Of a DNA stretch of 64,000 nt, positions 3,043-55,602 are shown piece after piece (the stretch's first letter is position 1; every line of letters begins with the position of its first letter). The stretch is from the NCBI GenBank assembly GCA_905234395.1, contig CAJOHG010000013.1, positions 5,253 through 69,252 on the forward strand, in the 5' to 3' direction. A program made the position numbers and the translations under genes. The notes under the pieces were generated by a model. That model was not told the DNA's origin, made no database searches, and worked only from the letters and a program-made list of their open reading frames with translations. This DNA is from an uncultured Selenomonadaceae bacterium (GTDB lineage: Bacteria > Bacillota > Negativicutes > Selenomonadales > Selenomonadaceae).

Positions 3043-3285
3043 GTGATTGTTGTCTCCTTCGATTGATTTTTTAGGATCTACTTTTTTTTTGCTGATGAAC
3101 TTCCTTTCTTTGCTTGCCCAAAGAAAGGAAGCGAAAGAAAGGGCACCTCGCAGGGGCGTTCAGTCGTTCGTTGACGCAACGTTAAAACTTTCATCAGCCG
3201 TTAGTGTCGGCAAACTTCGCGTCACGCTCAGTGTGCCGACGACCGCGCGTCCATGCGCGGTCTTTGTTACGTCAATTTGAATATT

Positions 3286-3864: not shown

Positions 3865-3993
3865 TTTACCGACCTCCTTTCATCGGCAAGATATTATCAG
3901 AAATTCTTCAGATAAACAAGACGCAAGCCTCAACTTCTACGCAAAAAAGCGCAACCCTTCAAAGAGTCACGCTTTTAATTTTACGGTCAATGA

Positions 3994-4695: not shown

Positions 4696-5057
4696 CGCAC
4701 GACCTCCAAACGTCTTGCTTTTGCTTTGGTGACAAGGTGCGGAGTTTCTTCAGCGTCGAGTGCTTGAGCGAGCCGAGCCAATTTTCCGTCCATCATGCCG
4801 ACAAATCCGGGGCGAATGTCCGCTTTCAAAACGACTTCCGTGCGAATTCCCTTTTCCGCCAAAACAAACGTCGCGCGCTTGACGACCGCCATAACTTCAT
4901 CCCAATCGCCTTCAATCTCAGTGAACATCGAGTAAGTTCTGTTCGGCAAGCCCGATTCGCGAATGACTTTGACGACCTCGGCAACGTCACTGCTAAGTTC
5001 GGAGCCGACACCGACGGGCGAAATTGCCACTGCAACCAACGTATTCAAATCAATCAC
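4692..5057 (-). CDS. MTH1187/YkoF-family thiamine-binding protein (DUF77)
   Basis: 121 aa. VAVAISPVGVG...VAEVVKVIRESGL...TEIEGDWDEVMAVVK matches the family pattern. It overlaps thiM and thiE by 4 nt each. Confidence 0.7.
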   Translation of the reverse strand: MIDLNTLVAVAISPVGVGSELSSDVAEVVKVIRESGLPNRTYSMFTEIEGDWDEVMAVVKRATFVLAEKGIRTEVVLKADIRPGFVGMMDGKLARLAQALDAEETPHLVTKAKARRLEVVR

Positions 5058-5941
5058 CCCAAAATATTTTTGAGTTCTTGAGACTGCAACGCGAATTCAA
5101 AAATTTCGCCCATTGAACCGACGACACGGAAATTATCCGCGACTTCCTCGCCCGTCAATTCGTAAAGGTTATCCAGAAACGCAACTTTGAAACTCGCGGG
5201 AGCATTTGCTTGAGCCGCCGCTTTTGTGCCTGCCAAATTGAAAATTGTCGTGCCTGCCAATGCCGCAATGAAAGGCGTCGTGACTGCCAAATAAATCGCC
5301 ATGATGCCGCCGAGTGCACAACCGCTGCCCGTAATTTTTGTTGAGAGTATCGAGCCGCCCGCGCATTGAATCGACTCTTTGCCGTCGGTGACCAAATCTT
5401 CTTCGCCGGAAACCGCAACAGCTCCGCCGGTAAATTTTGCAATGGCAACGGCAGACGTTTTGGCAGCGGAAACTTTTTCGGTCGTGTCGACGCCGCGAAC
5501 TTGTCCGCCTTGCGATGCGTCAATCAGTCCCCAAAGTTTTGCGAGCGAAATTATTTCGGAAGCATTGCCGCGAACGATTGACGGTTTGTAAATTTTCAGC
5601 TGACTTAAAATCTGCGTGCGCAAGTCCGAAAGTCCGATGCCGACCGGATCGAGCACCCAAGGCTTTTGATTCGCGAAAAGTGCCCGCGCAGTTCTCGGCA
5701 AAGTCTCCGCGTAAAACGGCATTGCCGTGCCCATGTTGATGTAAAATGCCGGTGCGATTTTGGCGATTGATTCACACTCGTCCGCCAGATAGAGCATTGC
5801 CGCAGAGCCGCCGATTGCCAGTTGCGCGTTGGCGACAAAGTCTTGAGTGACGGTGTTTGTTATTGACGGTGCCAACGGATTTTTTTCGCGCACATCGTTG
5901 ACTGCCTTTGCCAATGCCGCACGAATTTGTTGTTCTCTCAT
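5054..5941 (-). CDS. thiM: Hydroxyethylthiazole kinase
   Basis: 295 aa. Contains SITNTVTQDFVANAQLAIGGSAAM, INMGT, VLDPVG and VRGNASEI. Confidence 0.9.
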   Translation of the reverse strand: MREQQIRAALAKAVNDVREKNPLAPSITNTVTQDFVANAQLAIGGSAAMLYLADECESIAKIAPAFYINMGTAMPFYAETLPRTARALFANQKPWVLDPVGIGLSDLRTQILSQLKIYKPSIVRGNASEIISLAKLWGLIDASQGGQVRGVDTTEKVSAAKTSAVAIAKFTGGAVAVSGEEDLVTDGKESIQCAGGSILSTKITGSGCALGGIMAIYLAVTTPFIAALAGTTIFNLAGTKAAAQANAPASFKVAFLDNLYELTGEEVADNFRVVGSMGEIFEFALQSQELKNILG

Positions 5942-6004: not shown

Positions 6005-6079
6005 TGGTGACGCCTAAGGGATTCGAACCCTTGAACCCGCCGTGAGAGGGCGGTGTCTTAACCACTTGACGAAGGCGCC
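6005..6079 (-). tRNA. tRNA-Glu (anticodon CUC)
   Basis: The reverse complement is GGCGCCTTCGTCAAGTGGTTAAGACACCGCCCTCTCACGGCGGGTTCAAGGGTTCGAATCCCTTAGGCGTCACCA. It folds as a cloverleaf with anticodon loop CT-CTC-AC, T-loop GGTTCGAATCC and an encoded CCA. Confidence 0.9.
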
Positions 6080-26417: not shown

Positions 26418-26494
26418 TGGTCGGGATGACAGGACTTGAACCTGCGACCTCATCGTCCCGAACGATGCGCGCTACCAAACTGTGCTACATCCCG
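26418..26494 (-). tRNA. tRNA-Pro (anticodon CGG)
   Basis: The reverse complement is CGGGATGTAGCACAGTTTGGTAGCGCGCATCGTTCGGGACGATGAGGTCGCAGGTTCAAGTCCTGTCATCCCGACCA. An upstream TTGCAA-N17-TAAAAT and a downstream hairpin GGCGGAAGC/GCCTCCGCC are present. Confidence 0.9.
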
Positions 26495-33002: not shown

Positions 33003-34268
33003 TTGGAGAGACTTGTCATAAAGGGCGGCAACAGATTGAGCGGCACCGTTAAAATCAGCGGCGCGAAAAATGCTGTCCTGCCCGTCATTGCGGCAACGCT
33101 CCTCGGTCAAGACAAAGAAACTTGCTTGGACGAGGTGCCAAACCTTGATGACGTTCGCACAATCAGTGAAGTTCTTCGGACGCTCGGCGTGACTGTTCGC
33201 CACGAGCCCGCTAAAGGTCAACTCTTCGTCGACGCCTCGACGATTGAAAATATAACCGCGCCTTATGATCTCGTTCGCAAAATGCGTGCATCGTTTTTGA
33301 TTATGGGCCCGTTGCTCGCACGACTCGGCAGAGCAAAAATTTCATTGCCCGGCGGTTGCGCGATTGGCACTCGTCCGATTGATTTGCACTTGAAAGGTTT
33401 TGAGGCTCTCGGCGCAAAAATTTCTATCGGGCACGGCTACATCGAGGCTGTTGCTCCCGACGGCTTGAAAGGTGCTCAAATTTATCTTGACTTCCCGTCC
33501 GTCGGCGCGACGGAAAATATTTTGATGGCTGCGTCAATGGCACAAGGTCAAACCGTCATCGAAAATCCCGCGCAGGAGCCGGAGATTGTCGACCTTGCAA
33601 ATTATCTTAATCTTATGGGCGCAAAAATTCGCGGAGCAGGCACCAACGTCATCAAAGTCGAAGGCGCGAAAAAATTAATTGCCCGCGACTACACGATAAT
33701 TCCCGACCGAATTGAAGCAGGAACTTACATGATAGCCGCCGCAATGACGCAGGGCGACGTTTACATTGCCAACGCCATCAGCGAACATCTAAAGCCCGTT
33801 ATCGCCAAACTCAAGGAAGCAGGCGTCAAAGTCATTGAAGACGTTGACGGAATTCGCGTCATCTGCGACAAACGCCCGCGTGCCGTCGACATCAAGACGT
33901 TGCCTTATCCCGGCTTTCCGACCGATATGCAGGCGCAGTTCATGGCAATGTTGACAATCTCCGAAGGTACAAGCGTCGTCACGGAAACTGTCTTCGAGAA
34001 TCGTTTTATGCACGTCGACGAACTGAGACGCATGGGCGCGAAAATCAAAATTGACGGGCGCAGTGCCGTTGTCCACGGTCAAGACAAGTTGACGGGCTGC
34101 CAAGTCAAAGCGACTGATTTGCGTGCAGGTGCGGCGATTGTTTTGGCGGCACTCATCGCGGAAGGCGAAACTCAAGTAGGTTACATTCATCACATCGATC
34201 GCGGCTACGATAATCTCGTTCAAAAGCTGGTCAAGCTCGGCGCGGACATCAAACGCGTTGACAACTGA
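33003..34268 (+). CDS. murA: UDP-N-acetylglucosamine 1-carboxyvinyltransferase
   Basis: 421 aa with a TTG start after AAGGAGG. Contains [27 protein letters not shown] and HHIDRGY. Confidence 0.95.
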
Positions 34269-34287
34269 AAAATTTTTTGCAAACTAA

Positions 34288-34324
34288 AAGCCCGGCTGTC
34301 ATCAAAGACGGTCGAGCTTTTTTA
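34288..34324 (+). terminator. murA terminator
   Basis: A 13-bp stem AAGCCCGGCTGTC/GACGGTCGAGCTT (one mismatch, two G-U pairs) is followed by a T-run. Confidence 0.6.
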
Positions 34325-34362
34325 GTTTGGAGTTTTAATTTCTAATTCCTCATTTGATTGCG

Positions 34363-35256
34363 TTAAACTTTCTTGTTGCCGAATTTGCGAAGCTCAAGCC
34401 ACAGCGGTCCGGCAATGAAGATTGATGAGTAACAACCGCTCATGAAACCGACAATCAGCGCGAACGCAAAATCTTTTGTCGTCTCGCCGCCGAAGAAAAA
34501 CAGTGCAAACGTCGTAAACAGGCACGTGAAGACCGTGTACAGCGAACGAGTCAGCGTCTGATAAATGGAGCGGTTGACCAATTCGACGACGTTGCCGCCG
34601 CGTCTGAAGTGCAGTTTCAAATTCTCGCGTATCCTGTCAAAGATAACAATCGTGTCGTTGATTGAGTAGCCGACGACCGTCAACAATGCCGCGACGAACG
34701 ACGAATCGACTTGCCGTTGCGTGAATGAGAAAAATGCCAGAACGATTAAAATGTCGTGAACGAGAGCCAATACCGCCGCCACGCCGAATCGCCATTCAAA
34801 ACGATAAGCGATGTACAAAATTATCAGTGCCCACGAAATGACGAGCGCAAGTACCGCGTTCATGATGAGTTCGCCGCCGATAACCGCACCGACTTTTTCC
34901 TCGCGCAGAACTTCGTAGCCGCCGACTTTCTCGCGAATTGCCGCCATAACTTCTTTGCGCTGAACTTCTTCCAAATCAACCGTGCGAATCATTACGTCCG
35001 TTGAAGTTTCAACGTCGGAAGTCTCGCCGGAAAGTTGAATCGTCGCTCCGTCAAGTCCAAACGGTTTCAAACTTTCGCGGACTTGAGCAATCGCGACGGG
35101 CTGTTCAAATTTCAAATCGATAATCGTGCCGCCCGTGAAGTCAATCCCGAAGTTGAAGCCGCGCGTCAACATTGAAATGAGACCCGGAACAATTACGAGC
35201 AGCGAAATGATAAACCACATCTTGCCGCGCCCGGCAATGTCAAATTTCGGCATCAC
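34363..35256 (-). CDS. secF: Protein translocase subunit SecF
   Basis: 297 aa. Contains GIDFTGGT and a SecD/F transmembrane core. It overlaps secD by 4 nt. Confidence 0.92.
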   Translation of the reverse strand: MMPKFDIAGRGKMWFIISLLVIVPGLISMLTRGFNFGIDFTGGTIIDLKFEQPVAIAQVRESLKPFGLDGATIQLSGETSDVETSTDVMIRTVDLEEVQRKEVMAAIREKVGGYEVLREEKVGAVIGGELIMNAVLALVISWALIILYIAYRFEWRFGVAAVLALVHDILIVLAFFSFTQRQVDSSFVAALLTVVGYSINDTIVIFDRIRENLKLHFRRGGNVVELVNRSIYQTLTRSLYTVFTCLFTTFALFFFGGETTKDFAFALIVGFMSGCYSSIFIAGPLWLELRKFGNKKV

Positions 35257-36503
35257 GACTTCACCTCCTTGGCAACGTCAAACAAAACGAAACCGTCCGC
35301 GCCGTATATCGACGGACTTTCCACGACCTTTGAATTGACCAAAAGTTTCAGCAAGAATTGCGTTAAAGTTATCGCCGTGAACATTGAGAGCAAAACTCCG
35401 AGTCCCAACGTTATTGCGAAGCCGCGAATCGTGCCCGTGCCGAACATGAACAGAACTCCCGCCGCGATAATCGTCGTGATGTTCGAGTCGAAAATTGTCG
35501 TGAAGGCGCGCTTAAATCCTGCGTCCATTGCCAGACGAATCGATTTGCCCATGCGGAATTCTTCCTTGAAATGTTCAAAGATGAGCACGTTCGCATCGAC
35601 AGCCATACCGATTGACAAAATTATTCCCGCAACGCCCGGCAATGTCAACGTCGCGTCGAGACCCTTCAGCGTGCCCAAAAGCATTAACGTATACGCCATC
35701 AAGCTGATGTCCGCGATAAAGCCCGGCAGTCGATAGAAAAGAATCATGAAGATTAAAACCGCCGCGATGCCGACAACGAACGCGAATTCCGATTTGTCTT
35801 TTGAATCTTGACCGAGCGACGGGCCGACGGTGCGCGTTTCGATGATGTTGACTTTCACGGGCAATGCGCCGCTCCTCAAAAGCACTGCGAGACGTTGAGC
35901 CTCTTCAAGGTCGCGTTGACCGGAAATTTCAGCTTTGCCGCCGAGAATCGGTTCACGCACAACGGGATTGGTTAAAATTTCTCCGTCGAGCAGGATTGCG
36001 ATTGTTCTGCCGACATTATCAAGCGTGGCGTCCGCAAATTTTTGAGCACCTTCGTCGCTGAATTCGAGATTGACAACGCATTGACCGTTCTGTTGATTCA
36101 TGGCGGCTTGCGCGTCTTTAAGGTCGGTGCCCGTCAAAAGCGTGTTGCCGGCGTCGTCTTTGAACTCCAACATTGCGGTCTTGCCAATCGTCTCAATCGC
36201 CTTGTCCGGGTCTTTAATGCCGGGCAATTCGATAATCACACGACGTTCGCCTTCGCGCTGAATAATCGGTTCCGTTAAGCCCAACTCGTTTATGCGCCGC
36301 TCCATGATTGAAACGACGCGTTGCATTGCGTCTTCGTCGACTTTGGCAATTTCGGTGTCCTCGGCTTGAAGTACGACATGCGTGCCGCCCTGCAAGTCAA
36401 GTCCTTGTCGAATCGAATTGGCGAGCGGGCGAATAAAAATCACAAACACTGCCACGATTGCCACCAGACAAATCAGCAGCTTGATTAAACTGTTCGTCCT
36501 CAC
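35253..36503 (-). CDS. secD: Protein translocase subunit SecD
   Basis: 416 aa with a GTG start after GAAGGGAGA. Contains LGLDLQGGTH. An upstream TTGCCT-N17-TATATT is present. Confidence 0.92.
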   Translation of the reverse strand: MRTNSLIKLLICLVAIVAVFVIFIRPLANSIRQGLDLQGGTHVVLQAEDTEIAKVDEDAMQRVVSIMERRINELGLTEPIIQREGERRVIIELPGIKDPDKAIETIGKTAMLEFKDDAGNTLLTGTDLKDAQAAMNQQNGQCVVNLEFSDEGAQKFADATLDNVGRTIAILLDGEILTNPVVREPILGGKAEISGQRDLEEAQRLAVLLRSGALPVKVNIIETRTVGPSLGQDSKDKSEFAFVVGIAAVLIFMILFYRLPGFIADISLMAYTLMLLGTLKGLDATLTLPGVAGIILSIGMAVDANVLIFEHFKEEFRMGKSIRLAMDAGFKRAFTTIFDSNITTIIAAGVLFMFGTGTIRGFAITLGLGVLLSMFTAITLTQFLLKLLVNSKVVESPSIYGADGFVLFDVAKEVKS

Positions 36504-36647
36504 AAAAAATGTTCTCCCTTCAAATTTTCATGTTCGCACGTCAATATACTGCAAAGCCGTTTGAAAGGCAAGCCGCCCGTAATTTTCGACAAGAAAAATT
36601 TTCCGAAGTTCAACGAATTGTCCGCTCAATCGCTTGTCAATTCCACG

Positions 36648-36676
36648 TTGTACAGTTGAAAATTCTCTGTTATAAT
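36648..36676 (+). promoter_or_regulatory. Unit 1 toxin promoter
   Basis: TTGTAC (36648-36653)-N17-TATAAT (36671-36676), with TGT immediately upstream of the -10. Confidence 0.6.
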
Positions 36677-36733
36677 CGCGCCGATGCTACGACTCTCGTC
36701 AGGCAGAACAACTTGCGAGAGGAGGTGAGCATT

Positions 36734-36844
36734 ATGTTCAGTATCGTGACGATGCTGGCAGTAGGTGTGGTCTCGACCGCCGTCGGAACCGTTATCGGAA
36801 CCGTCGTTGGCGTCTACATCTGCAACCGCTGGCTCAAGAAGTAG
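36734..36844 (+). CDS. Type I toxin-like peptide, unit 1 (36 aa)
   Basis: GAGAGGAGGTGA precedes the ATG. The peptide is MFSIVTMLAVGVVSTAVGTVIGTVVGVYICNRWLKK, one TM helix plus a basic tail. Confidence 0.7.
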   Translation: MFSIVTMLAVGVVSTAVGTVIGTVVGVYICNRWLKK

Positions 36845-36895
36845 CAGGCGTATCCACTCCTGCGCCATTTGACTGAGTAGCGTTCAGTTATGGCA

Positions 36896-36992
36896 AACGA
36901 AAACTCCCTGGACGATGTAGCGTTTCGTTTCAGGGAGTTTTTCGTTTGGTGAAACATCATGTTCAGTATCTCGTGTGAATTTCTTAAGTAGC
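36896..36992 (-). ncRNA. Predicted antisense antitoxin RNA, unit 1
   Basis: Runs from the minus-strand promoter to the shared hairpin. It is transcribed across 36948-36970 (GGTGAaacatcATGTTCAGTATC), a same-strand copy of the unit 1 SD/start region (GGTGAgcattATGTTCAGTATC, 36724-36745). The ends are approximate. Confidence 0.5.
36900..36946. terminator. Shared bidirectional terminator, unit 1
   Basis: AAAACTCCCTG...CAGGGAGTTTTT, with A-rich and T-rich flanks on both sides. Confidence 0.65.
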
Positions 36993-36998
36993 GTTGAC

Positions 36999-37063
36999 AA
37001 TTTATCACAGAATCAATCGCTTGTCAATTCCGCGTTGCCCGGCTGAAAATTTCCTGCTATAAT
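36999..37063. promoter_or_regulatory. Back-to-back promoters: antisense RNA of unit 1 (-) and toxin of unit 2 (+)
   Basis: Minus strand: TTGACA (37027-37022)-N17-TAAATT (37004-36999). Plus strand: TTGCCC (37035-37040)-N17-TATAAT (37058-37063). Confidence 0.6.
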
Positions 37064-37122
37064 CGCGCCAATGCCGCACCTCACAAGCGGTAAGTTCACG
37101 CTTGAGGAGGGAGGTGAGATTT

Positions 37123-37215
37123 ATGCTGGAGAGCCTTTCGCAATTCGGCTGGGACGTTCTGGCGATCGTGGTCGGAGGTATGATCCTCGACTACATTATC
37201 AACAGACGTCGCTAA
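37123..37215 (+). CDS. Type I toxin-like peptide, unit 2 (30 aa, different family)
   Basis: GAGGAGGGAGGTGA precedes the ATG. The peptide is MLESLSQFGWDVLAIVVGGMILDYIINRRR, which looks Fst/Ldr-like. Confidence 0.65.
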   Translation: MLESLSQFGWDVLAIVVGGMILDYIINRRR

Positions 37216-37277
37216 GCGGCAGCAAACTCTAACCAGTTGCCCAAGATAATCGCATCACCCTGCGGTTAGGCAAAACG

Positions 37278-37380
37278 AAGCCCCCGTGCAGTTCACCCTT
37301 CTGCGCGGGGGTTTTTCGTTCGGTGATACTCATGCCGGAACTGCGAGCCTTTCATTTCACAGTTGTTGCCTTTTGTCAAC
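37278..37380 (-). ncRNA. Predicted antisense antitoxin RNA, unit 2
   Basis: Transcribed across 37322-37353 (GGTGAtactcATGCcGGAactgcGAGCCTTTC). The unit 2 mRNA reads GGTGAgatttATGCtGGAGAGCCTTTC. The ends are approximate. Confidence 0.45.
37281..37318. terminator. Shared bidirectional terminator, unit 2
   Basis: CCCCCGTGCAG...CTGCGCGGGGGTTTTT. Confidence 0.65.
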
Positions 37381-37386
37381 GCTGTA

Positions 37387-37451
37387 AATTTATCACAGAA
37401 TCAATCGCTTGTCAATTCCACGTTGTACAGTTGAAAATTCTCTGTTATAAT
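37387..37451. promoter_or_regulatory. Back-to-back promoters: antisense RNA of unit 2 (-) and toxin of unit 3 (+)
   Basis: Minus strand: TTGACA (37415-37410)-N17-TAAATT (37392-37387). Plus strand: TTGTAC (37423-37428)-N17-TATAAT (37446-37451). Confidence 0.6.
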
Positions 37452-37510
37452 CGCGCCGATGCTACGACTCTCGGTCAGGCATGAATCCACGACGAGAGGA
37501 GGTGTCAATT

Positions 37511-37621
37511 ATGCTTAGCATTTGCACGATGCTGGCAGTAGGTGTGGTCTCGACCGCTATCGGTACCGCCATTGGAACCGTAATAGGCGTCTACATCTGC
37601 AACCGCTGGCTCAAGAAGTAG
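37511..37621 (+). CDS. Type I toxin-like peptide, unit 3 (36 aa)
   Basis: GAGAGGAGGTG precedes the ATG. The peptide is MLSICTMLAVGVVSTAIGTAIGTVIGVYICNRWLKK. Confidence 0.7.
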   Translation: MLSICTMLAVGVVSTAIGTAIGTVIGVYICNRWLKK

Positions 37622-37675
37622 CAGGCATATCGTCTCCTGCGCCCTCTAACTGAAGTCGCGTTTGGTTATGGCAAA

Positions 37676-37768
37676 CGAAAACTCCCTTGACGGCGTCGCG
37701 TTCCGTTTCAGGGAGTTTTTCGTTTGGTGTCAACATGCTTAGCATTTCATGTGTATTTCTTAAGTAGC
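37676..37768 (-). ncRNA. Predicted antisense antitoxin RNA, unit 3
   Basis: Transcribed across 37726-37747 (GGTGTCAAcATGCTTAGCATTT). The unit 3 mRNA reads GGTGTCAAttATGCTTAGCATTT. The ends are approximate. Confidence 0.5.
37677..37725. terminator. Shared bidirectional terminator, unit 3
   Basis: AAAACTCCCTTG...CAGGGAGTTTTT. Confidence 0.65.
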
Positions 37769-37774
37769 GTTGAC

Positions 37775-37839
37775 AATTTATCACAGAATCAATCGCTTGT
37801 CAATTCCACGTTGCCCGGCTGAAAATTTCCTGTTATAAT
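37775..37839. promoter_or_regulatory. Back-to-back promoters: antisense RNA of unit 3 (-) and toxin of unit 4 (+)
   Basis: Minus strand: TTGACA (37803-37798)-N17-TAAATT (37780-37775). Plus strand: TTGCCC (37811-37816)-N17-TATAAT (37834-37839). Confidence 0.6.
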
Positions 37840-37901
37840 CGCGCCGATGCTACGACTCCTCGAACACTTCAGCAGAACTTCTTCGAGAGGAGGTGAGCAC
37901 A

Positions 37902-38012
37902 ATGATCAGTATTCTGGTCACGCTGGCAGTGGGTGTGGTCTCGACCGCTATCGGTACCGCCATTGGAACCGTAATCGGCGTCTACATCTGCAATCGTCGA
38001 CAAAAGAAGTAG
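37902..38012 (+). CDS. Type I toxin-like peptide, unit 4 (36 aa)
   Basis: GAGAGGAGGTGA precedes the ATG. The peptide is MISILVTLAVGVVSTAIGTAIGTVIGVYICNRRQKK. The track ORF 37847..38044 is in another frame and is rejected. Confidence 0.7.
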   Translation: MISILVTLAVGVVSTAIGTAIGTVIGVYICNRRQKK

Positions 38013-38064
38013 CAGGCGTATCCACTCTTTCGCCCTCTAACTGAAGTCACGTTTGGTTATGGCA

Positions 38065-38163
38065 AACGAAAACTCCCTTGACGGCGTCACGTTCCGTTTC
38101 AGGGAGTTTTTCGTTTGTGAGCCAATGATCAGCATTCTCACGAATATCTTCTAAATTCTGGTC
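38065..38163 (-). ncRNA. Predicted antisense antitoxin RNA, unit 4
   Basis: Transcribed across 38118-38138 (TGAGCcAATGATCAGcATTCT). The unit 4 mRNA reads TGAGCacAATGATCAGtATTCT. The ends are approximate. Confidence 0.5.
38066..38115. terminator. Shared bidirectional terminator, unit 4
   Basis: AAAACTCCCTTG...CAGGGAGTTTTT. Confidence 0.65.
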
Positions 38164-38169
38164 GCGGCT

Positions 38170-38198
38170 AATCTATCACACAATCAATCGCTTGTCAA
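38170..38198 (-). promoter_or_regulatory. Antisense RNA promoter of unit 4; its -35 lies inside the last codons of the R-M gene
   Basis: TTGACA (38198-38193, codons L-T of ...VELTSD*)-N17-TAGATT (38175-38170). Confidence 0.55.
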
Positions 38199-40990
38199 TT
38201 CCACGTAGCGATTCATCAGCTCGCCGACAATTTTTGCCTCGTCGTCCAAAATGTTTTCAAAGCCGTAAGCCAAAGCAACTGCCTTGTCATTTTCGCGATG
38301 AGCTTTTCTCAAATCGGCGGGCATTGTCAATTCGTCGTACAAATCGGCAAGCGTAGAGTCGGGATAATTTTTTCGCGCGTCCAAAATTTTTTGCGCAGTC
38401 GTTTCAATCGCTCGACGCCGGTTATCTGTCGGCTCGCACCACGGAAAATTATTATAAACCACGTTGCTTGAATAGCGATAACTCGTTCCAAGGTAGCCGC
38501 AGACCGTTCGCATCCAAGCCATATGAATTGACGACGTTAAAATTCCAAAGTGATACAGCGTCGCGTTCGGGATAATCAAATTTGCATTGCTCGCGATAAT
38601 ATCAGGTGATACAAATCCCATTGGAATATATTTTCGTCCGCCCGATGAATGACACGGAATTAAAATGTATTCAGTTGTCGGTTGTGATATGAAGAAAAAT
38701 TTATGCGGCGTCTCTGCAGTCTTTCTAGTTGCAGCTGAAGTGCTAGCCTCGCGCATTTTTCTGACGGCATCAACTCGCCGATAAAGTTCTTTGCTTTTGC
38801 GAAGTTCCTTAGGCGTCGCGTTGACAAGCCATAAGCAATAACGTTCGATGTTGTTGATGAATTCGTTGCCGCCGACGTAACGGAAGATAAATTTTTCAAG
38901 TGCAGGCTCGCGTTGAAGAATCTCTTTGCGTTCGGCAGGCGACAGAATCAAATTTCCGCCGTCACTCGGTTTGTTGCCTAAAATAATTCGCGGCACGAAG
39001 TCTTGAAGATGTTTTGCACGGCTCTCGATAAAAATTGTCGGCGCGTCGCACAGGTAAGGATTGATATTTTTCGCGCTGATGATTTCGTCGCCGTCAAAGA
39101 TTTTCTTTTCGACGGGCAAAGACTTATCGGCAATGCAGATAACGACGCAATGAACGCTTGCCTTGTCGAGAGATTCGCTGTCCCATTTGAAAGTTCGGCG
39201 TGCGAAAATGATTTGCATGTTGTATTCGTCGAAAACCTTTTTCCAAAGCGGAGCGAGCTGTTCGCCCTGCGTGATAGAGTTCGTGCTTACAAAGGCGGCT
39301 TTGATGTTGGTGCCGGTCATGAATTTTGCGGCGAGATGATACCACGCGCCAACGTAGTCGACGCTGTTAGAGAGTTTGACTTTGCCGAAAATCTTGACGG
39401 CTTCGGCTTTCTGCGCGGCGTTCATCATGCTTGCACCGACGAAAGGCGGATTTCCGATGATGTAATTCGGTTGCGGACAAATTTTTTGCCAGTCGATTTT
39501 CAAAGCGTTGCCTTCGTGAATGTTTGAATAACTTTTCAGCGGCAGAAAGTCTAAGTCGCGGTGAATAATCTCTCGCGTGTCCTGCATCATTTGCAATTCA
39601 GCGATCCACAATGCAGTTTGCGCGACGGCTACAGCAAAGTCGTTGATTTCGATGCCGTAAAATTGTCCGATTGAAACTTTTATCGGGTTGACGAGTTCGC
39701 CGAGCTGAATTTGACTGCCGAGCAATTCCTTGAGCAATTCGTTTTCAAGTCGACGCAACGACAGATAACTTTCCGTCAAAAAATTCCCGGAGCCGCACGC
39801 AGGATCGAAAATTTTCAACGACGCAAGCTTATCTTGGAACGCGAGCAAATTTTTCTTGCGGTTACGTGACGGAATTTTGGCGATGTCAAATTCGGCTTTA
39901 AGTTCGTCCAAAAATAACGGGTCGATGACTTTGTGGATGTTTTCAATCGCCGTGTAGTGCATGCCGCCGGCGCGTCGAGTTTCGGGATTCAACGTCGATT
40001 CAAACACTGCGCCGAATATCGTCGGACTGATTCCGCTCCAGTTGAAACCGCTTGACGCTTCTTCAAACAACAGCTCGCGAATTTTGGGCGTGAAGTTCGG
40101 AATTTCGATTGAGCCGCTGAAAAGTCCGCCGTTGACGTAAGGAAATTTTTTCAACGTGTCGTCAAGATACGGGTCGCGCTCATCAATCGGAGTGTTCAGC
40201 ACGTCAAACAGATGAATCAAATCCCAACGAATATTTCTTGCCAGTCGCGGAAAATTTTGTGCTTGCCGAAAATGCCCGATGACTCGGCGTAAAGACAAAA
40301 GACCAATCGGACGCAGAGCTTGTTGAGACTGGCTTGACTTTCCGCAGAATTCGGATTGACGTATTGCGCGAGCAAAGCGTTGTAAAGTTTGCCGACGATT
40401 TCGCCCGCCTTCAAGCTCAATTCCAACTCAATGCGAATCTTGTTGCGTTCCTTGTCAATCAGAAAATCCAGCGCGTGAAATTTTTCGGGCAACTCTTCGA
40501 GCAAAATTTTAATCGGCGGCTTCAAAGTTTCCATGTCGTAAATCAGAAACTCTTTGAAATTGCACGTGATGATTTTTTTCGGGTGCATTGAGACCGGCAA
40601 GCCGATAACATACCGCCGCGCCTGTTCGTAAGGTGTGAGCTTCGTTCCGTCCGATTGCGTGATTTCCTTTTCCAAATCGACGCCGCAAGCTTTCTGCTCA
40701 ATCAAAACGTTTGTGTCGGGAAAATAGCCGTCGATAAAACTTTTGTGCGCGAGCTGAACTGGCACTTCAAAGTTTATAAAATTTTCGGGCTTGTCGATGT
40801 CGAAAACGTCACGAATCAGCGTGAGCCAAAATTTTTGATAATCAGCACGTTCATTGGCGACAACGTTTGAGCGCGGCTTATCGGTTGAAATTTTTTGAAA
40901 CTCCGTCGCGTCCGCTGTTCCGTCGCTTTTAAAGCGACCACGTTCGCCGTTGACTTCGCGCCACTGCTTGACAAAATTTTTTACGTTCAA
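38184..40990 (-). pseudogene. MmeI-family type IIL/IIG restriction-modification fusion enzyme, split by one frameshift
   Basis: Track ORFs 40217..40990 and 38184..40298 overlap by 82 nt in different frames. The first carries the nuclease FIDGYFPDTNVLIEQK and the helical LVFCLYAESSGIF. The second carries LFDVLNTP, FPYVNGGLF, FDPACGSGNFL, GNPPFVG, the TRD and HMAWMRTVCG...YNNFPW. Together they total about 940 aa, similar to MmeI. The start is TTG after GGAAGGAGG. Confidence 0.85.
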
Positions 40991-41124
40991 GCTAAAACCT
41001 CCTTCCGCACCGATTATATCACATTTAAACGTTTCGTCGATTCAAAGATTTTATTCCGACAAACAACTTGCAAGTGAGATGATTAAATGCTAAAATCAGC
41101 CAAAATTTATTGGGAGGAATTTCT

Positions 41125-41529: not shown

Positions 41530-41753
41530 CAAAAGACGATTTGACGTTTAAGCTTAAGCTCGTAAAGGAGTGATGCGATTGCTTGAGTGTAAATTCGTCT
41601 CGACAAAGTAAAAAAATTACGCCGACAAAGTGGATTGTCAACGCTAATTGCAAAATATATAAGTTCAAAAACATTTTAACACATTTATAAAAAATAGCAA
41701 TGGCTTTTGGCAATTCCTCTTTTGGCGTGGAAATTTCAAAGGAGGAATTAATC

Positions 41754-42473
41754 ATGGCTAACGAAAAGAAAATTAGTGCTGATTGCAAAGACGTTTGGAA
41801 CGCATTCATGGTGAGAAGTGCAGATTTTCCGCAGAATGGTATTGGCATTCCGTTTTGCCCGACGACCGCGAAAGAAATTCCGTGCGAACTCATCTCCTAC
41901 ACCGAAGCGAGAGCTACTTACAATCGGCAGATGAAGCGCGACAACAAAAATTTTTTCGTGAACTCTTTTGTTCACTTCTATCAACATGATCGCAAATTCG
42001 ACGGTAAACGTTGCGGGATATGGTTTCAACCTCGGAGAGCCGCAGAAATTTTTCGGCACTTCGCGGGCATCATTACTCCCGACTTCTCGACCAATCTCGA
42101 TTTCCCGTTCCCGTGGAAAATTTTCAACACCTATCGAATGCGGGCGTTCGGCTATTGGTACGGCACACTCGGCGGCGCGGTCATTAACAATGTTCGTTGG
42201 GGCGAAGAGGATACTTTCAGCTGGTGCTTTGAGGGTATAGCGCACAACAGTATCGTTTCAATCGGAACGGTTGCGAGCGGACTTCGTGATTTTGAAAATC
42301 GTAAACTTTTTGAGACCGGCTTTTTCAAGATGATTGAAGTGTTGCGCCCGCATACAATAATTGTTTACGGCTCGGACAAATATTCATGCATTGAAAGCGT
42401 GCGTCAGCAAATCAAAATTGTACAATTCGACAGCGAACGCGCCCTTGCCTTTGCGGAGAAAAATCATGTCTAA
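41754..42473 (+). CDS. DUF4417-family protein
   Basis: The start MANEKK follows AAAGGAGGA. FVHFYQHDRKFD...GIITPDFSTNLDFPFPWKIFNTYRMRAFGYWY...VINNVRWGEEDTFSWCFEGIAHNSIVSIG matches the DUF4417 pattern as I recall it (HFF.DD.FE...PDFS...N.YR...VIP...W...S...CF.G). Confidence 0.65.
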   Translation: MANEKKISADCKDVWNAFMVRSADFPQNGIGIPFCPTTAKEIPCELISYTEARATYNRQMKRDNKNFFVNSFVHFYQHDRKFDGKRCGIWFQPRRAAEIFRHFAGIITPDFSTNLDFPFPWKIFNTYRMRAFGYWYGTLGGAVINNVRWGEEDTFSWCFEGIAHNSIVSIGTVASGLRDFENRKLFETGFFKMIEVLRPHTIIVYGSDKYSCIESVRQQIKIVQFDSERALAFAEKNHV

Positions 42474-42903
42474 GCCGGACAGCGGACATTTTCATGGCGC
42501 GAACGGCAAAGGCGGCGGCTCAACTTCTCCGCTCTTCAACAACGGACATGTGACTTATGAAAGCATTGAGGCGCACCGCGAAGAATTCATGGGCAAAACT
42601 GTCGAACAAATCGCTGAACTGCTCAGTCAAAACGGTTATAAGTTTAATATTCGCCCGTCAAAAAATCGTGAGAAAACCGGCTCGACAGCTCAAATAATCG
42701 AAATAACCAATGCATCAAAAGATCGCAATATTAAGCAAGTCCAAGTTTCGCCTGACGGGAGCAGTCGACACGGCAATGTTCCTTATGTAAAAATCAGCAC
42801 GTCAAACGAGAGTAAAATTAAAGTTATCGACGGAACACCAGAAAAATATATACCTGGCGATAACGAAAAAGCGCGTTTAATTTTCTGGAGGGATAGCGAA
42901 TGA
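42466..42903 (+). CDS. Hypothetical 145-aa protein (orphan toxin-domain-like)
   Basis: The ATG overlaps the DUF4417 stop (ATGTCTAA). The peptide is MSKPDSGHFHGANGKGGG...GKTVEQIAELLSQNGYKF...SSRHGNVPYVKISTSNESKIKV. It has no signal peptide or trafficking domain. Confidence 0.5.
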   Translation: MSKPDSGHFHGANGKGGGSTSPLFNNGHVTYESIEAHREEFMGKTVEQIAELLSQNGYKFNIRPSKNREKTGSTAQIIEITNASKDRNIKQVQVSPDGSSRHGNVPYVKISTSNESKIKVIDGTPEKYIPGDNEKARLIFWRDSE

Positions 42904-43367
42904 TTGATTTAACCACGCCGATTATTCCTTACGTTGGCACGGGAATTTTTAAGCTTGATTCTTCTTATAATGAAATCAAATCTCTTCTTGCAGAGCACAA
43001 CATTTCGTATAAAGAGGAAATTTGGGAAGCAACTGACGTTGATCCGCCGTGGCATATCATCGGTATATCTAGAGTCGGCGAAGAATACGATGCATTAAGC
43101 CTTACTTTTGCCAAGAACAGACTCTTCAGGATTTGTCTTTACGAGGATTTCTACGGGAAATTGCCGAATGGGATTCATACTAACATGACGATTGAAGAAG
43201 CTTTGATTATTGATAAAAACTTGTACTATAATGATGACAATGATGAACTTTATGAATCACCTGACGGCTATTGGCTCGATTATCACAGAGGTACAAGAAA
43301 AATTTTGACAATCATTATTTTCATTCCGGCACTTGAGAGCGACGATTTCTTCGATTACAACTGGTAA
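42900..43367 (+). CDS. Hypothetical acidic 155-aa protein (immunity-protein-like)
   Basis: ATGA start/stop overlap with the previous ORF. It is Asp/Glu/Tyr-rich (LYYNDDNDELYESPDGYWLDY...ESDDFFDYNW). Confidence 0.5.
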   Translation: MIDLTTPIIPYVGTGIFKLDSSYNEIKSLLAEHNISYKEEIWEATDVDPPWHIIGISRVGEEYDALSLTFAKNRLFRICLYEDFYGKLPNGIHTNMTIEEALIIDKNLYYNDDNDELYESPDGYWLDYHRGTRKILTIIIFIPALESDDFFDYNW

Positions 43368-43374
43368 GCGACTT

Positions 43375-43419
43375 TACAAAAAAATTTTTCCCCGCCAAAT
43401 TTCTGACGGGGATTTTTTT
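43375..43419. terminator. Bidirectional terminator between the cassette and the MmeI remnant
   Basis: A-run, then CCCCG...CGGGG, then a T-run. Confidence 0.65.
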
Positions 43420-44589
43420 ATTTGCTCGCGTGTTGTTCGTAGAGTTTGAGCAACTTTACGGCTAAAGTCGGCTCGTCGTCCAAAAATTTTTCCCAACCGT
43501 AAGCTTTTGCCACTGCCAAATCGTTTTCGCGATGAGCTTTTCTCAATTCATACGGCATGGAAACTTCATCATACAAAGCGGCAAGCGTCGACTTCGGATA
43601 ATTTTTTCGTGCATCCAAAATATTCTGCGCGAACTGCTCGACAGCAAGGCGTTGCGTTTCTGTCGGCTCAATCCACACAAAATTATTGTACACCACGTCT
43701 TTTGAGTAGAGATAATCACTTTTCAAACGACCGCCGACCGTTCTAAGCCACGCCATGTGTATTGAACTCGTCAAAATTTTAAAATGATACAATGTAAAGT
43801 TGGGAATTTCAATCTTTCCGCTGAAAAGTCCGCCGTTGACGTATGGAAATTTTTTCAACGTGTCGTCAAGATACGGGTCGCGCTCATCAATCGGAGTGTT
43901 CAGCACGTCAAACAGATGAATCAAATCCCAACGAATATTTCTTGTGCTTGCCGAAAAAGATGCCCGAAGACTCGGCGTAAAGACAAAAGACCAATCGGAC
44001 GCAGAGCTTGTTGAGACTGGCTTGACTTTCCGCAGAATTCGGATTGACGTATTGGGCGAGCAAGGCGTTGTAAAGTTTGCCGACGATTTCGCCTGCTTTA
44101 AGCGAAAGTTCAACTTCAATGCGGAGCTTGTTGCGTTCCTTGTCAATCAGAAAATCCAGCGCGTGAAATTTTTCCGGGCAACTCTTCGAGCAAAATTTTC
44201 GTCGGTGCCGCGAGCGTTTCCATATCGTAAATCAGAAACTCTTTGAAATTGCACGTGACGATTTTTTTCGGGTGCATGGAGACCGGCAAGCCGATAACAT
44301 ATCGTCGCGCCTGTTCATAAGGTGTGAGCTTCGAGCCGTCGGACTGCGTGATTTCCTTTTCCAAATCGACACCGCAAGCTTTCTGCTCAATCAAAACGTT
44401 TGTGTCGGGAAAATAGCCGTCGATAAAACTTTTGTGCGCGAGCTGAACGGGCACTTCAAAGTTTATAAAATTTTCGGGCTTGTCGATGTCGAACACGTCG
44501 CGAATCAACGTGAGCCAAAATTTTTGATAGTTTGCGCGTTCGCCGCTGACGTGTGCCCATTGCTTGACAAAATTTTTTATGTCGCTCAT
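43418..44589 (-). pseudogene. Degenerate second copy of the MmeI-family gene (nuclease domain plus extreme C-terminus; methyltransferase and TRD deleted)
   Basis: The N-terminal ~150 codons are near-identical to copy 1 but carry a 1-nt insertion (TTTTTCCGGGC vs TTTTTCGGGC) and a 19-nt deletion relative to copy 1. IEIPNFT is joined directly to LYHFKILTSSIHMAWLRTVGG at about 43792/43793. Confidence 0.85.
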
Positions 44590-46132: not shown

Positions 46133-47482
46133 ATGAAAAAGTCAGTAGTAGCAGCTCTTGCGGCGGCAGTTGTCGTCGGAGCAAGTTCAACCACATTCGC
46201 AGCGACAAATCCTTTCAGCGAAGTCCCGGCAGGGCACTGGGCTTATCAAGCAGTCACGTCTCTTTCACAGAGCGGTATCGTTGAAGGTTACGGCGACGGC
46301 ACCTATCGCGGCGAACGTCAAATCACCCGCTATGAAATGGCGCAGATGATCGCCAAAGCTCTTGCCAGAACCGATGAAATGTTCGACAGAGAAGCAAGAC
46401 AGTATGAGAATCGCGGCACCGGCGGCTCCAAAGTTGCAAAAAACTATCACGCAACCAAAGCCGATTTGGCAGAACTTCAACGTCTCGTGGAAGAATTCCG
46501 TCCCGAACTTGAAAGACTCGGCGTTCTCGAAGAGAGAGTCGACGAGATGTGGAAGTATCACGACAAAGTCACGTGGACAGGCGAACTTCGTTACCGCTAT
46601 TACAACGACAAAGAAGATCGCAAAGGCACCAGCGACAAGAAGAGAACCAATAACCAACTTCAACTCCGTCTCTTCCCCACGGCTGAAGTCAATAAGCACT
46701 TGAAAATTAAAGCCCGTTTGACGGCAAGCAACAACATGAAAACCAACACGTCGGGCGACTTCAAACTTACTTATGCTTTCGCTGAAGGCAAATTCGGCAA
46801 ACTGCAAGTCAACGTCGGTAAAATGCCGTTCTACACCAACGTCGACGACGGTCTCGTAATGGATGACTTCTTCAGCGGCGTGGCGGCGGTTTACGGCGAC
46901 AAATTCAAAGTTGCGTTGATGGCAGGTCGTTGGGATTTGGACAGTGCAAACCTCAATCTGCCCGCAGATGCAACTCTTAGCGATAATGCCGCAAGCTATC
47001 AAGGTGCCGAAATTTCTTACGACAACGACAAACTTTATCTCGGCGCAGGTTATCATCATTTCCGCAGCGACGACTTCCGCAACCTGCCCGGCTACAAGAA
47101 TAATAAGAATGCCAATGTCTGGACTGTCGGCGCACGTTACAACTTCAGCGATTTCGGTATCGGCGGTGCATATGCTCAAAACACCAAAGCTGATGATTTC
47201 AAGCGTTCGTGGTGGGCAGGTCTCTCCTACAAAGGCGCAAATCGCAAAGAAGCCGGCACGTGGGGCATCAGTGCCGCTTATCGCTACGTCGGTCAAAACG
47301 TCAGCTTGGCTCCCACTTATGACACCTTCTCTTTGAGAACCAATAAAAAAGGTGTCGACATTGGTGTTGACTGGTCGCCGTGGACGAACACCTACGCGCA
47401 ACTCGGTTATTTCTGGGGCAAGACGCTCGACACTCATCAAGACGACAGGACTTTCTTCGGACGTTTCAGCTGGTTCTTCTAA
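46133..47482 (+). CDS. SLH-domain outer-membrane porin (Mep45/OmpM-like)
   Basis: 449 aa. Has a signal peptide ...TTFA/A and an SLH motif FSEVPAGHWAYQAVTSLSQSGIVEGYGDGTYRG...TRYEMAQMIAKAL. A coiled-coil and a beta-barrel follow, ending ...FFGRFSWFF. Confidence 0.88.
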   Translation: MKKSVVAALAAAVVVGASSTTFAATNPFSEVPAGHWAYQAVTSLSQSGIVEGYGDGTYRGERQITRYEMAQMIAKALARTDEMFDREARQYENRGTGGSKVAKNYHATKADLAELQRLVEEFRPELERLGVLEERVDEMWKYHDKVTWTGELRYRYYNDKEDRKGTSDKKRTNNQLQLRLFPTAEVNKHLKIKARLTASNNMKTNTSGDFKLTYAFAEGKFGKLQVNVGKMPFYTNVDDGLVMDDFFSGVAAVYGDKFKVALMAGRWDLDSANLNLPADATLSDNAASYQGAEISYDNDKLYLGAGYHHFRSDDFRNLPGYKNNKNANVWTVGARYNFSDFGIGGAYAQNTKADDFKRSWWAGLSYKGANRKEAGTWGISAAYRYVGQNVSLAPTYDTFSLRTNKKGVDIGVDWSPWTNTYAQLGYFWGKTLDTHQDDRTFFGRFSWFF

Positions 47483-47517: not shown

Positions 47518-47547
47518 CTCCTCTGCTTATCGGCAGGGGAGTTTTTC
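47518..47547 (+). terminator. Porin gene terminator
   Basis: CTCCTCTGC-ttatcg-GCAGGGGAG followed by TTTTT. Confidence 0.75.
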
Positions 47548-55253: not shown

Positions 55254-55602
55254 GGGGATGTAATGGTTTCGACGGGAATGGATGAAGTTTGATAAGCGAG
55301 TGCCGGGCTCCTCGAACCGGCTCAACAAGGGGAAACTCAAACAATAACTGCGGATAACGATTTCGCACTGGCGGCTTAAACGCCACGTCGCCTGATTGAT
55401 TCTTCCCGTCAGATCAGAGTCGACGCCAATAACGGGATACCGCACTTGAGAGCACTGCAGAGTTGCGGGAACTTCCAAAGTGCTTGACGTTGCAAAGGTT
55501 GTCATTGAACTTTGCGCCGTTGAAATTGATCAATGACTGCACTCGGAGAAAATCTTGCGGCATCATTTTCGGACAGGAGTTCGATTCTCCTCATCTCCAT
55601 CA
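55254..55602 (+). ncRNA. ssrA: tmRNA (SsrA)
   Basis: The 5' end is GGGGATGTAATGGTTTCGACGGG and the 3' end is GGACAGGAGTTCGATTCTCCTCATCTCCA. The acceptor stem GGGGATG/CATCTCC contains a G3-U pair. The tag ORF GCG GAT AAC GAT TTC GCA CTG GCG GCT TAA (55350-55379) encodes ADNDFALAA. Confidence 0.93.

Follow-up and report, generated by a model that had tools for sequence, protein, structure and literature searches.

The 64,000-nt window analysed here, the whole of a stretch of contig CAJOHG010000013.1 from an uncultured Selenomonadaceae bacterium, contains an array of four tandem units of ~388 bp each (36626–38206) between secD (35253–36503, minus strand) and a gene for an MmeI-family restriction-modification enzyme. 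Each unit carries an open reading frame (ORF) for a small hydrophobic peptide on the plus strand and a predicted small antisense RNA (sRNA) gene on the minus strand. The units are bounded by a 23-mer, TCAATCGCTTGTCAATTCCACGT, that occurs five times, at 36626, 37013 (one mismatch), 37401, 37789 and 38184, where shuffled sequences are expected to contain none; the periods of 387, 388, 388 and 395 nt are those that the initial annotation of the locus had reported. The first copy (36626–36648, plus strand) is not a promoter, because there is no usable −10 element on its left, and the fifth (38184–38206, minus strand) is the reverse complement of the last seven codons and the stop codon of the MmeI-family gene (…VELTSD and stop). 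Alignment of the four units gives a mean column identity of 75%, with nearly identical junctions and variable interiors. The array is not an assembly artefact, because an independent metagenome assembly (L002; contigs with related sequences are given L numbers throughout) carries what reads as the same four-unit array and matches the window at 99.07% identity across 8,026 nt. In a third assembly there is a break 195 nt upstream of secD, a common effect of repeats.

Examination of the units with a consensus scan reveals exactly one plus-strand promoter in each, consisting of TTGTAC or TTGCCC, N17 and an extended −10 element (TGnTATAAT), and one minus-strand promoter in each, consisting of TTGACA, N17 and TGnTAAATT (TAGATT in unit 4). 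Both kinds lie exactly where they had been claimed to lie, and 2 kb of sequence hold 14 promoter-like sites against 2.2 expected. All four units also contain the long hairpin flanked by an A-run and a T-run that had been put forward as a two-way terminator (36894–36948, 37271–37322, 37672–37726 and 38063–38117), and in its stem there are compensatory CG/UA changes. Convergent promoters with a common bidirectional intrinsic terminator, as found in the par family of toxin-antitoxin (TA) systems of type I, are therefore features of the array in silico. The predicted mRNAs are 253–272 nt long and the predicted minus-strand sRNAs 97–110 nt, the latter with a fold in which a largely open 5′ tail of ~45 nt (~60 nt in unit 2) is followed by the terminator hairpin.

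In unit 1, the toxin promoter (TTGTAC-N17-TGtTATAAT, 36648–36676, plus strand) would produce an mRNA of ~266 nt (36683–36948, plus strand). Its 5′ untranslated region (5′-UTR) can form a hairpin between CTCTCG (36693–36698) and CGAGAG (36716–36721) that runs into the Shine-Dalgarno (SD) sequence AGGAGG (36720–36725), followed by the ORF for a 36-aa peptide, MFSIVTMLAVGVVSTAVGTVIGTVVGVYICNRWLKK (36734–36844). The sRNA promoter of this unit (TTGACA-N17-TGaTAAATT, 36999–37027, minus strand) would yield an sRNA of ~99 nt (36894–36992, minus strand) that includes the bidirectional terminator. Unit 2 has its toxin promoter (TTGCCC-N17-TGcTATAAT) at 37035–37063, its predicted mRNA at 37070–37322, a 5′-UTR hairpin between CCTCA (37079–37083) and TGAGG (37103–37107), and an ORF for a 30-aa peptide of a divergent subfamily, B, MLESLSQFGWDVLAIVVGGMILDYIINRRR (37123–37215), all on the plus strand; its predicted sRNA of ~110 nt (37271–37380) and sRNA promoter (37387–37415) are on the minus strand. 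In unit 3, the plus strand bears the toxin promoter (37423–37451), the predicted mRNA of ~269 nt (37458–37726) and the ORF for the 36-aa peptide MLSICTMLAVGVVSTAIGTAIGTVIGVYICNRWLKK (37511–37621), and the minus strand bears the predicted sRNA of ~97 nt (37672–37768) and its promoter (37775–37803). Unit 4 is laid out in the same way, with the toxin promoter (37811–37839), the predicted mRNA of ~272 nt (37846–38117), a 5′-UTR hairpin between CCTCGAA (37858–37864) and TTCGAGAGG (37882–37890), and the ORF for the 36-aa peptide MISILVTLAVGVVSTAIGTAIGTVIGVYICNRRQKK (37902–38012) on the plus strand, and the predicted sRNA of ~101 nt (38063–38163) and its promoter (TTGACA-N17-TGaTAGATT, 38170–38198) on the minus strand; the −35 element of this last promoter is within the MmeI coding sequence. 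The sRNAs of units 2, 3 and 4, like that of unit 1, include the terminators of their units.

The sRNA gene of each unit contains a same-strand copy of that unit's own start region, from the SD sequence to codon 5 or 10, and the 5′ tail of the sRNA is the complement of this distal copy. Such copies are found in all four units, as initially annotated. In unit 1, ATGTTCAGTATC occurs at 36734 and again 225 nt away at 36959; the sRNA tail is the complement of 36948–36975, and its predicted duplex with the mRNA extends from −11 to +31, counted from the ATG. In unit 2, GAGCCTTTC occurs at 37131 and 37345, and, compared with the mRNA, the distal start-region copy (37322–37353) has a single T/C change and an insertion of 5 nt (ATGCCGGA-ACTGC-GAGCCTTTC). 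The corresponding words are ATGCTTAGCATTT at 37511 and 37735 in unit 3 (distal start-region copy 37726–37747) and ATGATCAG at 37902 and 38125 in unit 4 (distal start-region copy 38117–38138), where one further T/C difference between the copies would be a U•G wobble in the duplex.

This arrangement predicts that each sRNA pairs best with the mRNA of its own unit, and the full set of 16 pairings calculated with RNAduplex bears this out. The cognate pairs of units 1–4 reach −40.6, −44.8, −37.3 and −46.7 kcal/mol and are the best in every row and every column of the 4×4 matrix; compared with shuffled sRNA tails, they lie 3.5 to 7.3 standard deviations lower (z = −6.0, −3.5, −6.4 and −7.3 for units 1–4). 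Counted from the ATG, the cognate duplexes of the units span −11 to +31/+39. In a 15×15 matrix that also includes cassettes of other contigs, the best partner of 13 of the 15 sRNAs is again their own mRNA. An antisense RNA gene whose product pairs with the toxin mRNA, a defining property of type I systems, is thus present by prediction.

The start-proximal sequences differ between units, and the proposal that the distal copies covary with them holds both in the array and in the cassettes of other contigs, specifically in L003, L009, L010, L011, L015, L018B, L022, L026 and L029. The start word and the distal copy are identical in L011 (GTGTTAAGTATCT) and L015 (ATGCTAAGCATTT), and the same word is found in both places in L022 (AGCTTCTCG) and L018B (TATTCTTATCCTGCTC). 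They read ATGCTGAGTGTCT and ATGCTGAGCGTTT in L003, ATGCTTAGTATC and ATGCTCAGTATC in L009, GTGCTGAGCATTT and ATGCTGAGCATTT in L010, and ATGGCTGTTTTACTCGTT and ATGACTACTTTACTCGTT in L026. Several of the differences between start word and distal copy are transitions that would keep G•U pairs; in L026, all three would be G•U wobbles in the duplex. Direct repeats over the toxin SD sequence and start codon, another feature of par, therefore exist here, with covariation in more than 10 independent cassettes.

Beyond what the initial annotation described, there is a second direct repeat that is specific to each cassette. The loop of a small 3′-UTR hairpin upstream of the terminator has the same word of 6–9 nt as the terminator loop: GTAGCGTT in unit 1 (36877–36884 and 36917–36924, plus strand), TCACCCT in unit 2 (37255–37261 and 37293–37299), GTCGCGTT in unit 3 (37655–37662 and 37695–37702) and GTCACGTT in unit 4 (38046–38053 and 38086–38093). 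This repeat is found in 14 of 15 cassettes, and the mean common word is 7.1 nt for cognate compared with 4.5 nt for non-cognate combinations. Because the 3′-UTR hairpin sits past the 3′ end of the sRNA and has the same loop word, the sRNA terminator loop is complementary to two loops of the mRNA. It is plausible that this contact between sRNA and mRNA is a kissing site and a second determinant of specificity.

The mRNAs are also predicted to be folded in ways that could limit their translation. At the 5′ end of the unit 1 mRNA, UGCUAC (36685–36690) is expected to form a helix with GUAGCA, which overlaps the stop codon (36841–36846); in unit 2, UGCCGC (37072–37077) would pair with GCGGCA next to the stop codon (37216–37221), a compensatory change relative to units 1, 3 and 4. 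An RNAalifold consensus of the mRNAs contains this 5′-end helix, the SD hairpin, helices within the ORF, the 3′-UTR hairpin and the terminator, so that a 5′ stem-loop over the SD sequence and a helix that sequesters the mRNA 5′ end, both known from par, are each predicted. Scored on the same alignment from which it was derived, this structure has 93.8% of cells paired, compared with 35–52% when the partners are slid by 1–3 columns, and 15 double-change pairs compared with 3–7 in the slid controls; none of 500 shuffles reached the observed values. Helix 1 (the 5′ end with the stop-codon region) and helix 2 (the 5′-UTR hairpin) have two double-change pairs each.

All four ORFs have GGAGG upstream at a spacing of 8 nt, and their lengths (36, 30, 36 and 36 codons) and hydropathy agree with the earlier description of a single transmembrane helix followed by a basic tail. 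The best 19-residue hydropathy window of each peptide is 1.8–2.1, the tails are NRWLKK, NRRQKK and NRRR, and the 36-aa type has a GxxxGxxxG glycine zipper. Net charge is +3 or +4 in the three 36-aa peptides and 0 in the 30-aa peptide of unit 2, which has a basic RRR tail. At 30–36 aa, the peptides have the properties of type I toxins, which are shorter than 60 aa and hydrophobic, with one helix and a charged C-terminus. Two peptide types are indeed present, as had been noted, but they are probably not separate families: hhalign matches them over their C-terminal 17 columns (67% probability, E = 5e-5) and L018 encodes a 33-aa intermediate, MDILILLGVTVVGGAIGTVVGGLILDYIRAKRS, which suggests that they are probably divergent homologues. 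The ratio of non-synonymous to synonymous differences (pN/pS) is 0.30 over codons 8–30, the transmembrane core, as expected under purifying selection, and divergence is much higher at codons 2–7, within the pairing region (pS 0.75, pN 0.41). The low ratio in the core argues that the ORF is very probably translated.

The computational tests that the initial annotation had called for all gave the predicted outcome. Taken together, these features make it likely that the array consists of four autonomous type I TA cassettes built on the plan of par (Fst RNA I / RNA II) and SprA1/SprA1AS. In the mechanism we propose, a near-consensus extended −10 promoter would make a toxin mRNA of ~265 nt from each cassette, and this mRNA would be stable and poorly translated by virtue of two helices, one between the 5′ end and the stop-codon region and the other the 5′-UTR hairpin that runs into the SD sequence. 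The convergent promoter would make an sRNA of ~100 nt that uses the same bidirectional terminator as the mRNA. Recognition would begin at loops, with the sRNA terminator loop contacting both the mRNA terminator loop and the loop word of the 3′-UTR hairpin; the unstructured sRNA 5′ tail would then complete the pairing over the 3′ half of the SD sequence, the start codon and the next 5–10 codons. We predict that this pairing blocks initiation, and it may trigger cleavage of the duplex too. Upon loss of the sRNA the peptide would be made, and its glycine-zipper transmembrane helix and basic tail would damage the cytoplasmic membrane. Because the four units have diverged at both recognition sites, each sRNA would control mainly its own mRNA. 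The role of the array could be to stabilize, or provide a back-up for, the adjacent restriction genes.

Several observations weigh against this interpretation. The next-best pair in the duplex matrix, sRNA 4 with mRNA 1, reaches −36.6 kcal/mol, so substantial cross-pairing is predicted and insulation between the units may be incomplete. Two of the 15 cassettes, L014 and L018A, break the cognate rule: the downstream sRNA of L018A has no match to its mRNA, and in L014 it is the 5′-UTR hairpin, not the start codon, that the distal copy matches. In the helix between the 5′ end and the stop codon, the compensatory change comes from one lineage (subfamily B), and the consensus mRNA structure was, as stated, scored on its own alignment. 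The peptides match no model of Fst, Ldr or another type I toxin, and the RNAs match no antitoxin family of Rfam, the best relevant scores being 18.2 bits for rdlD and 21.4 bits for ctRNA_p42d (gathering score 50 each). As an observation in its own right, the distal repeat of L014 (820–870) copies the 5′-UTR hairpin CCACTTCCGTCCAGCAGAACACTAACGAGAAGAAGTG, which implies an sRNA that targets the SD hairpin.

The family to which the peptides belong is narrowly distributed. Using in-frame extended ORFs of the peptides as queries, a search of 5.8 billion proteins returned just 17 relatives for the 36-aa type and 7 for the 30-aa type, all of them unnamed peptides of metagenomes or metagenome-assembled genomes (MAGs). 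An exhaustive HMMER pass over 1.84 billion cluster representatives gave 13 matches of 35–75 aa, all of the same family. Where family members have a named source, it is always a MAG of the Selenomonadales, an order of the class Negativicutes, and among the representative genomes of 185,579 species the family occurs in only two MAGs, both from uncultured Selenomonadales. A scan of metagenomes of the Joint Genome Institute (JGI) added only three more short contigs. Hits in Streptomyces (L012) and Dehalococcoidia (L013), at 62–65% identity over query residues 1–26 and 8–27, were set aside as probable chance matches. Neither 72,556 plasmids nor 50,697 phage records contained a blastn match to unit 3, which thus shows no sign of a plasmid or phage origin. 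The array had initially been matched to no described locus, and this agrees with the searches of type I toxin models and Rfam: Pfam, NCBIfam and PADLOC scans of the four peptides yielded nothing meaningful, and an Rfam cmscan with all families on both strands of 34000–41000 at E ≤ 10 yielded only sub-threshold matches at chance level. In the literature, we found no report of type I systems in Negativicutes (including Selenomonas, Veillonella and Megasphaera) and none that links type I toxins to MmeI.

Whether copy number varies in related genomes had been raised as a question, and it does vary, from one to four or more toxin genes per array plus sRNA genes that lack a toxin. Nearly all intact family-A toxin genes with enough flanking sequence are followed by a convergent promoter, TTGAC(A/G)-N17-TGnTA(A/G)ATT, with differing spacers; the L018 and L019 cassettes have TAAGTT as the −10 element instead, and downstream of the L032 toxin ORF no convergent promoter was found. 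Truncated toxin ORFs and sRNA genes without a toxin ORF, consisting of terminator, tail and promoter only, are frequent; the latter lie at 6215–6935 of L003, 1790–1930 of L009, 2975–3105 of L015 and 1390–1555 of L018. In L003, there are five sRNA promoters for one intact toxin ORF; four of the toxin-less sRNA genes and an internally deleted toxin ORF are found in this contig, and in the strain variants L005 and L008, unlike L003, the second toxin ORF is intact. Among the cassettes examined, we found no well-supported case of an expressible toxin gene without an sRNA gene. This asymmetry is expected if the peptide is harmful.

Two further small ORFs were seen among the relatives. The L018 array includes a third kind of small ORF (1655–1747; MEFLDWVSIICQVGTLAFAALTYFDNHKKK, 30 aa) with its own SD sequence, which may be another toxin type. 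In L022, a 41-aa, strongly basic amphipathic ORF, VKESRKRVKRRVRKFVKRIVESVIGRFIYDVLKKFFEDND (5425–5547), lies between the cassette and the MmeI gene and has its own terminator. In the window itself, a possible fifth cassette near 47536, which shares GGGGAGTTTTTCGTT, proved to be the ordinary terminator after the gene at 46133–47482.

The asymmetry between toxin and sRNA genes bears on an improbable alternative, in which the same RNA logic would serve small membrane proteins that are benign and modulate, for instance, a transporter or envelope stress, their synthesis being tuned by convergent antisense RNAs. The peptides, whose toxicity is a prediction, match no toxin family, and many cassettes lie between housekeeping genes (atpC/dapL, asd, msrAB), both of which are compatible with benign peptides. 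However, the frequency of toxin-less sRNA genes and truncated toxin ORFs without any well-supported expressible toxin that lacks an sRNA, the multilayered control (sequestration of the SD sequence and of the 5′ end, and two pairing sites), the tandem arrays with diverged specificity and the linkage to restriction genes are all typical of type I toxins and needless for a benign peptide.

Two other explanations are much harder to reconcile with the cassettes. A tandem row of small peptides that are cationic and hydrophobic and have an SD sequence each is reminiscent of leaderless bacteriocin-like or other secreted amphipathic peptides, such as those of multi-peptide leaderless bacteriocin loci, in which case the antisense-looking repeats would be incidental; this is very unlikely, as the peptides do not form an operon but have a promoter and a terminator each, there are no adjacent immunity or export genes (the flanks are secD and the MmeI-family gene), and secreted peptides cannot explain why start region and distal copy covary in each cassette. 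In addition, the host class Negativicutes is diderm, which would make leaderless export less likely. Equally hard to sustain is a recently amplified, non-functional repeat whose repeats and hairpins are by-products of duplication without RNA–RNA function: the nearly identical junctions do indicate recent duplication or gene conversion, and the boundary repeat includes 23 nt of the adjacent MmeI gene, but the variable parts covary inside units instead of drifting independently, purifying selection acts on the ORF core, the promoters keep their hexamers but vary in their spacers, and the same architecture recurs in distant family members at unrelated chromosomal sites.

The proposed type I cassettes of the window adjoin an MmeI-family restriction-modification gene (38184–40990, minus strand), which we treat as context and not as part of a cassette. 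In the window, this gene is split into ORFs of 704 aa and 257 aa by a 10-nt deletion (GCGCCTTCGA) near 40239; its counterpart in L002 is otherwise 99.66% identical and encodes an intact 938-aa protein. The gene in the window is frameshifted and probably inactive, beside an intact array. The Leu-Thr codons TTGACA at the end of the MmeI gene are the −35 element of the unit 4 sRNA promoter, and the same holds for the last sRNA promoter in L003. As read from the sequence of both loci, there is no terminator between the MmeI stop codon and the sRNA that follows, sRNA 4 in the window; thus, the MmeI transcript must carry the sRNA 4 sequence as a 3′-UTR, up to the shared terminator.

Linkage to restriction genes recurs elsewhere. 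The order TerD/array/MmeI is found in L003–L008, except in the short contig L007, whose sequence stops at the toxin gene, and the order HxlR/cassette/MmeI in L022, L023 and L025; the MmeI proteins of the three contexts are 47–64% identical to one another. In L015, the 3′ end of a gene for a type III restriction Res subunit (3137–5167, minus strand; PADLOC REase_III, E = 4.9e-56) abuts the sRNA promoters of the cassette. Linkage to MmeI is not universal, since L009, L010, L011, L014 and L021 have other neighbours, and further cassettes sit between housekeeping genes such as those named above. Beside the two-cassette array of L011 there are two large ORFs (1518–4280) with no Pfam family, the second of which has a weak PADLOC mad8 match (E = 5.6e-7); they may form a defence system. 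In the window, the rest of the islet (41700–44146) comprises a DUF4417 gene (41700–42473), two family-less ORFs (42361–42903 and 42900–43367) and a truncated second MmeI remnant (43418–44146, minus strand) with helicase-spacer, TRD-end and C-terminal domains and with no cassette at its 3′ end. Ordinary chromosomal features of the window include a tmRNA gene (55254–55599, plus strand; tag peptide ADNDFALAA) and genes for tRNA-Glu (6005–6079) and tRNA-Pro (26418–26494).

It is doubtful that the cassettes are functionally wired to the restriction genes beside them, as opposed to simply sharing a defence islet with them. If they were, loss or shut-off of the restriction gene, whether by deletion of the island or by phage take-over, would lower the antitoxin and release the membrane toxin. 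This would amount to RNA-level addiction, or an abortive-infection back-up, for a single-polypeptide restriction-modification enzyme, a kind of enzyme that would itself have little capacity for post-segregational killing. The insulated arrays and the toxin-less sRNA genes would then record an arms race between addiction and anti-addiction.

These predictions have several implications. T1TAdb lists 24 type I families (PMC8594479), and the narrow distribution of type I systems has been noted before (PMC5367252); the array would add a toxin family from diderm Firmicutes of animal guts (gut or rumen Selenomonadales). Four paralogous cassettes side by side, with two covarying recognition sites, offer material for understanding how antisense specificity and insulation evolve. 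The recurrent linkage to restriction enzymes and the toxin-less sRNA genes lead to hypotheses in which TA modules stabilize or back up defence genes. Standard annotation captures neither the peptides nor the sRNAs, a gap that loci of this kind expose.

To place the cassettes among known type I systems, a close point of reference is par of the E. faecalis plasmid pAD1 and its chromosomal homologues. Weaver's review names the features conserved in par: promoters that converge, a terminator that works in both directions and has loops at which the interaction begins, direct repeats spanning the initiation site, a 5′ stem-loop that covers the SD sequence, and sequestration of the 5′ end (PMC7472228). 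The initial annotation had recognized the logic of par (Fst RNA I / RNA II) in the array, and all of these features are present in silico. Specifically, both have convergent promoters and a common terminator with complementary loops able to start the interaction, both have direct repeats that are transcribed in opposite directions and so give an sRNA complementary to the toxin initiation region (PMC7472228), and in both an intramolecular 5′ stem-loop covers the SD sequence and a helix sequesters the mRNA 5′ end. The Fst toxin is likewise ~30–36 aa long, with one transmembrane helix and a charged C-terminal tail (PMC7472228), and a Trp between helix and tail, part of the Fst/Ldr signature, occurs in a subset of the array family (NRWLKK). 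As at the junction of the MmeI gene with sRNA 4, par_EF0409 lacks a terminator to separate the antitoxin from the gene upstream of it, which makes read-through possible (PMC7472228).

Despite these similarities, there are clear differences from par. The array peptides have no Pfam or NCBIfam match even at E ≤ 10, they lack PXXXG and have no Pro in the helix, with the GxxxGxxxG zipper instead, and the conserved Trp is found in only part of the family; membership of the Fst/Ldr superfamily is thus not supported, as judged by comparison through Pfam models. The sRNA of the array is predicted to be ~100 nt, whereas par RNA II is ~40–65 nt. The second repeat of the array is the loop word of the 3′-UTR hairpin and not a second block at the 5′ end, and the region of the stop codon is the predicted pairing partner of the mRNA 5′ end. 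Also unlike par, the host is a diderm Negativicute, and the arrays comprise up to four or more cassettes with diverged specificities, plus toxin-less sRNA genes.

Other convergent systems differ in where the two RNAs meet. In TxpA/RatA and BsrG/SR4 of B. subtilis, as in the array, the toxin mRNA and the sRNA of a Firmicute are convergent, with overlapping 3′ ends; there, the sRNA acts through its overlap with the ORF or the 3′ end (PMC8594479). In contrast, the predicted 3′ ends of the array sRNAs (36894, 37271, 37672 and 38063) lie past the stop codons, leaving ~50 nt in units 1, 3 and 4 and 56 nt in unit 2 between the stop codon and the predicted overlap downstream of it, and a remote copy of the start region makes the specific contact, which places the array outside this class. 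The C. difficile modules, CD2517.1/RCd8 and others, also combine small membrane toxins with convergent overlapping antisense RNAs and, in a gut Firmicute, are consistently found beside an immunity locus (PMC5961336). Their toxins are longer, at 50–53 aa, their antisense RNAs overlap by 131–283 nt and act through the overlap, the partner locus is CRISPR and not a restriction gene, and there is no sequence similarity.

The remaining relative in design is SprA1/SprA1AS of S. aureus. T1TAdb puts Fst/RNAII and SprA1/SprA1as together as the families whose antisense RNA shares just the 3′ end with the mRNA and interacts with it outside this overlap (PMC8594479), the class into which the array would fall too. 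As in the array, the antisense RNA overlaps the mRNA 3′ end and not the ORF, its non-overlapping 5′ domain pairs with the initiation region (PMC8594479), and the toxin, PepA1, is a 30-aa transmembrane helix with a basic tail; the two have no sequence or Rfam similarity, however, and SprA1 belongs to a pathogenicity island and does not form an array. These comparisons suggest that the cassettes follow a known design, the par/SprA1 plan, but carry an apparently undescribed family of toxin peptides and sRNAs, and that the four-unit array with two covarying sites, the toxin-less sRNA genes and the recurrent linkage to restriction genes probably go beyond that plan.

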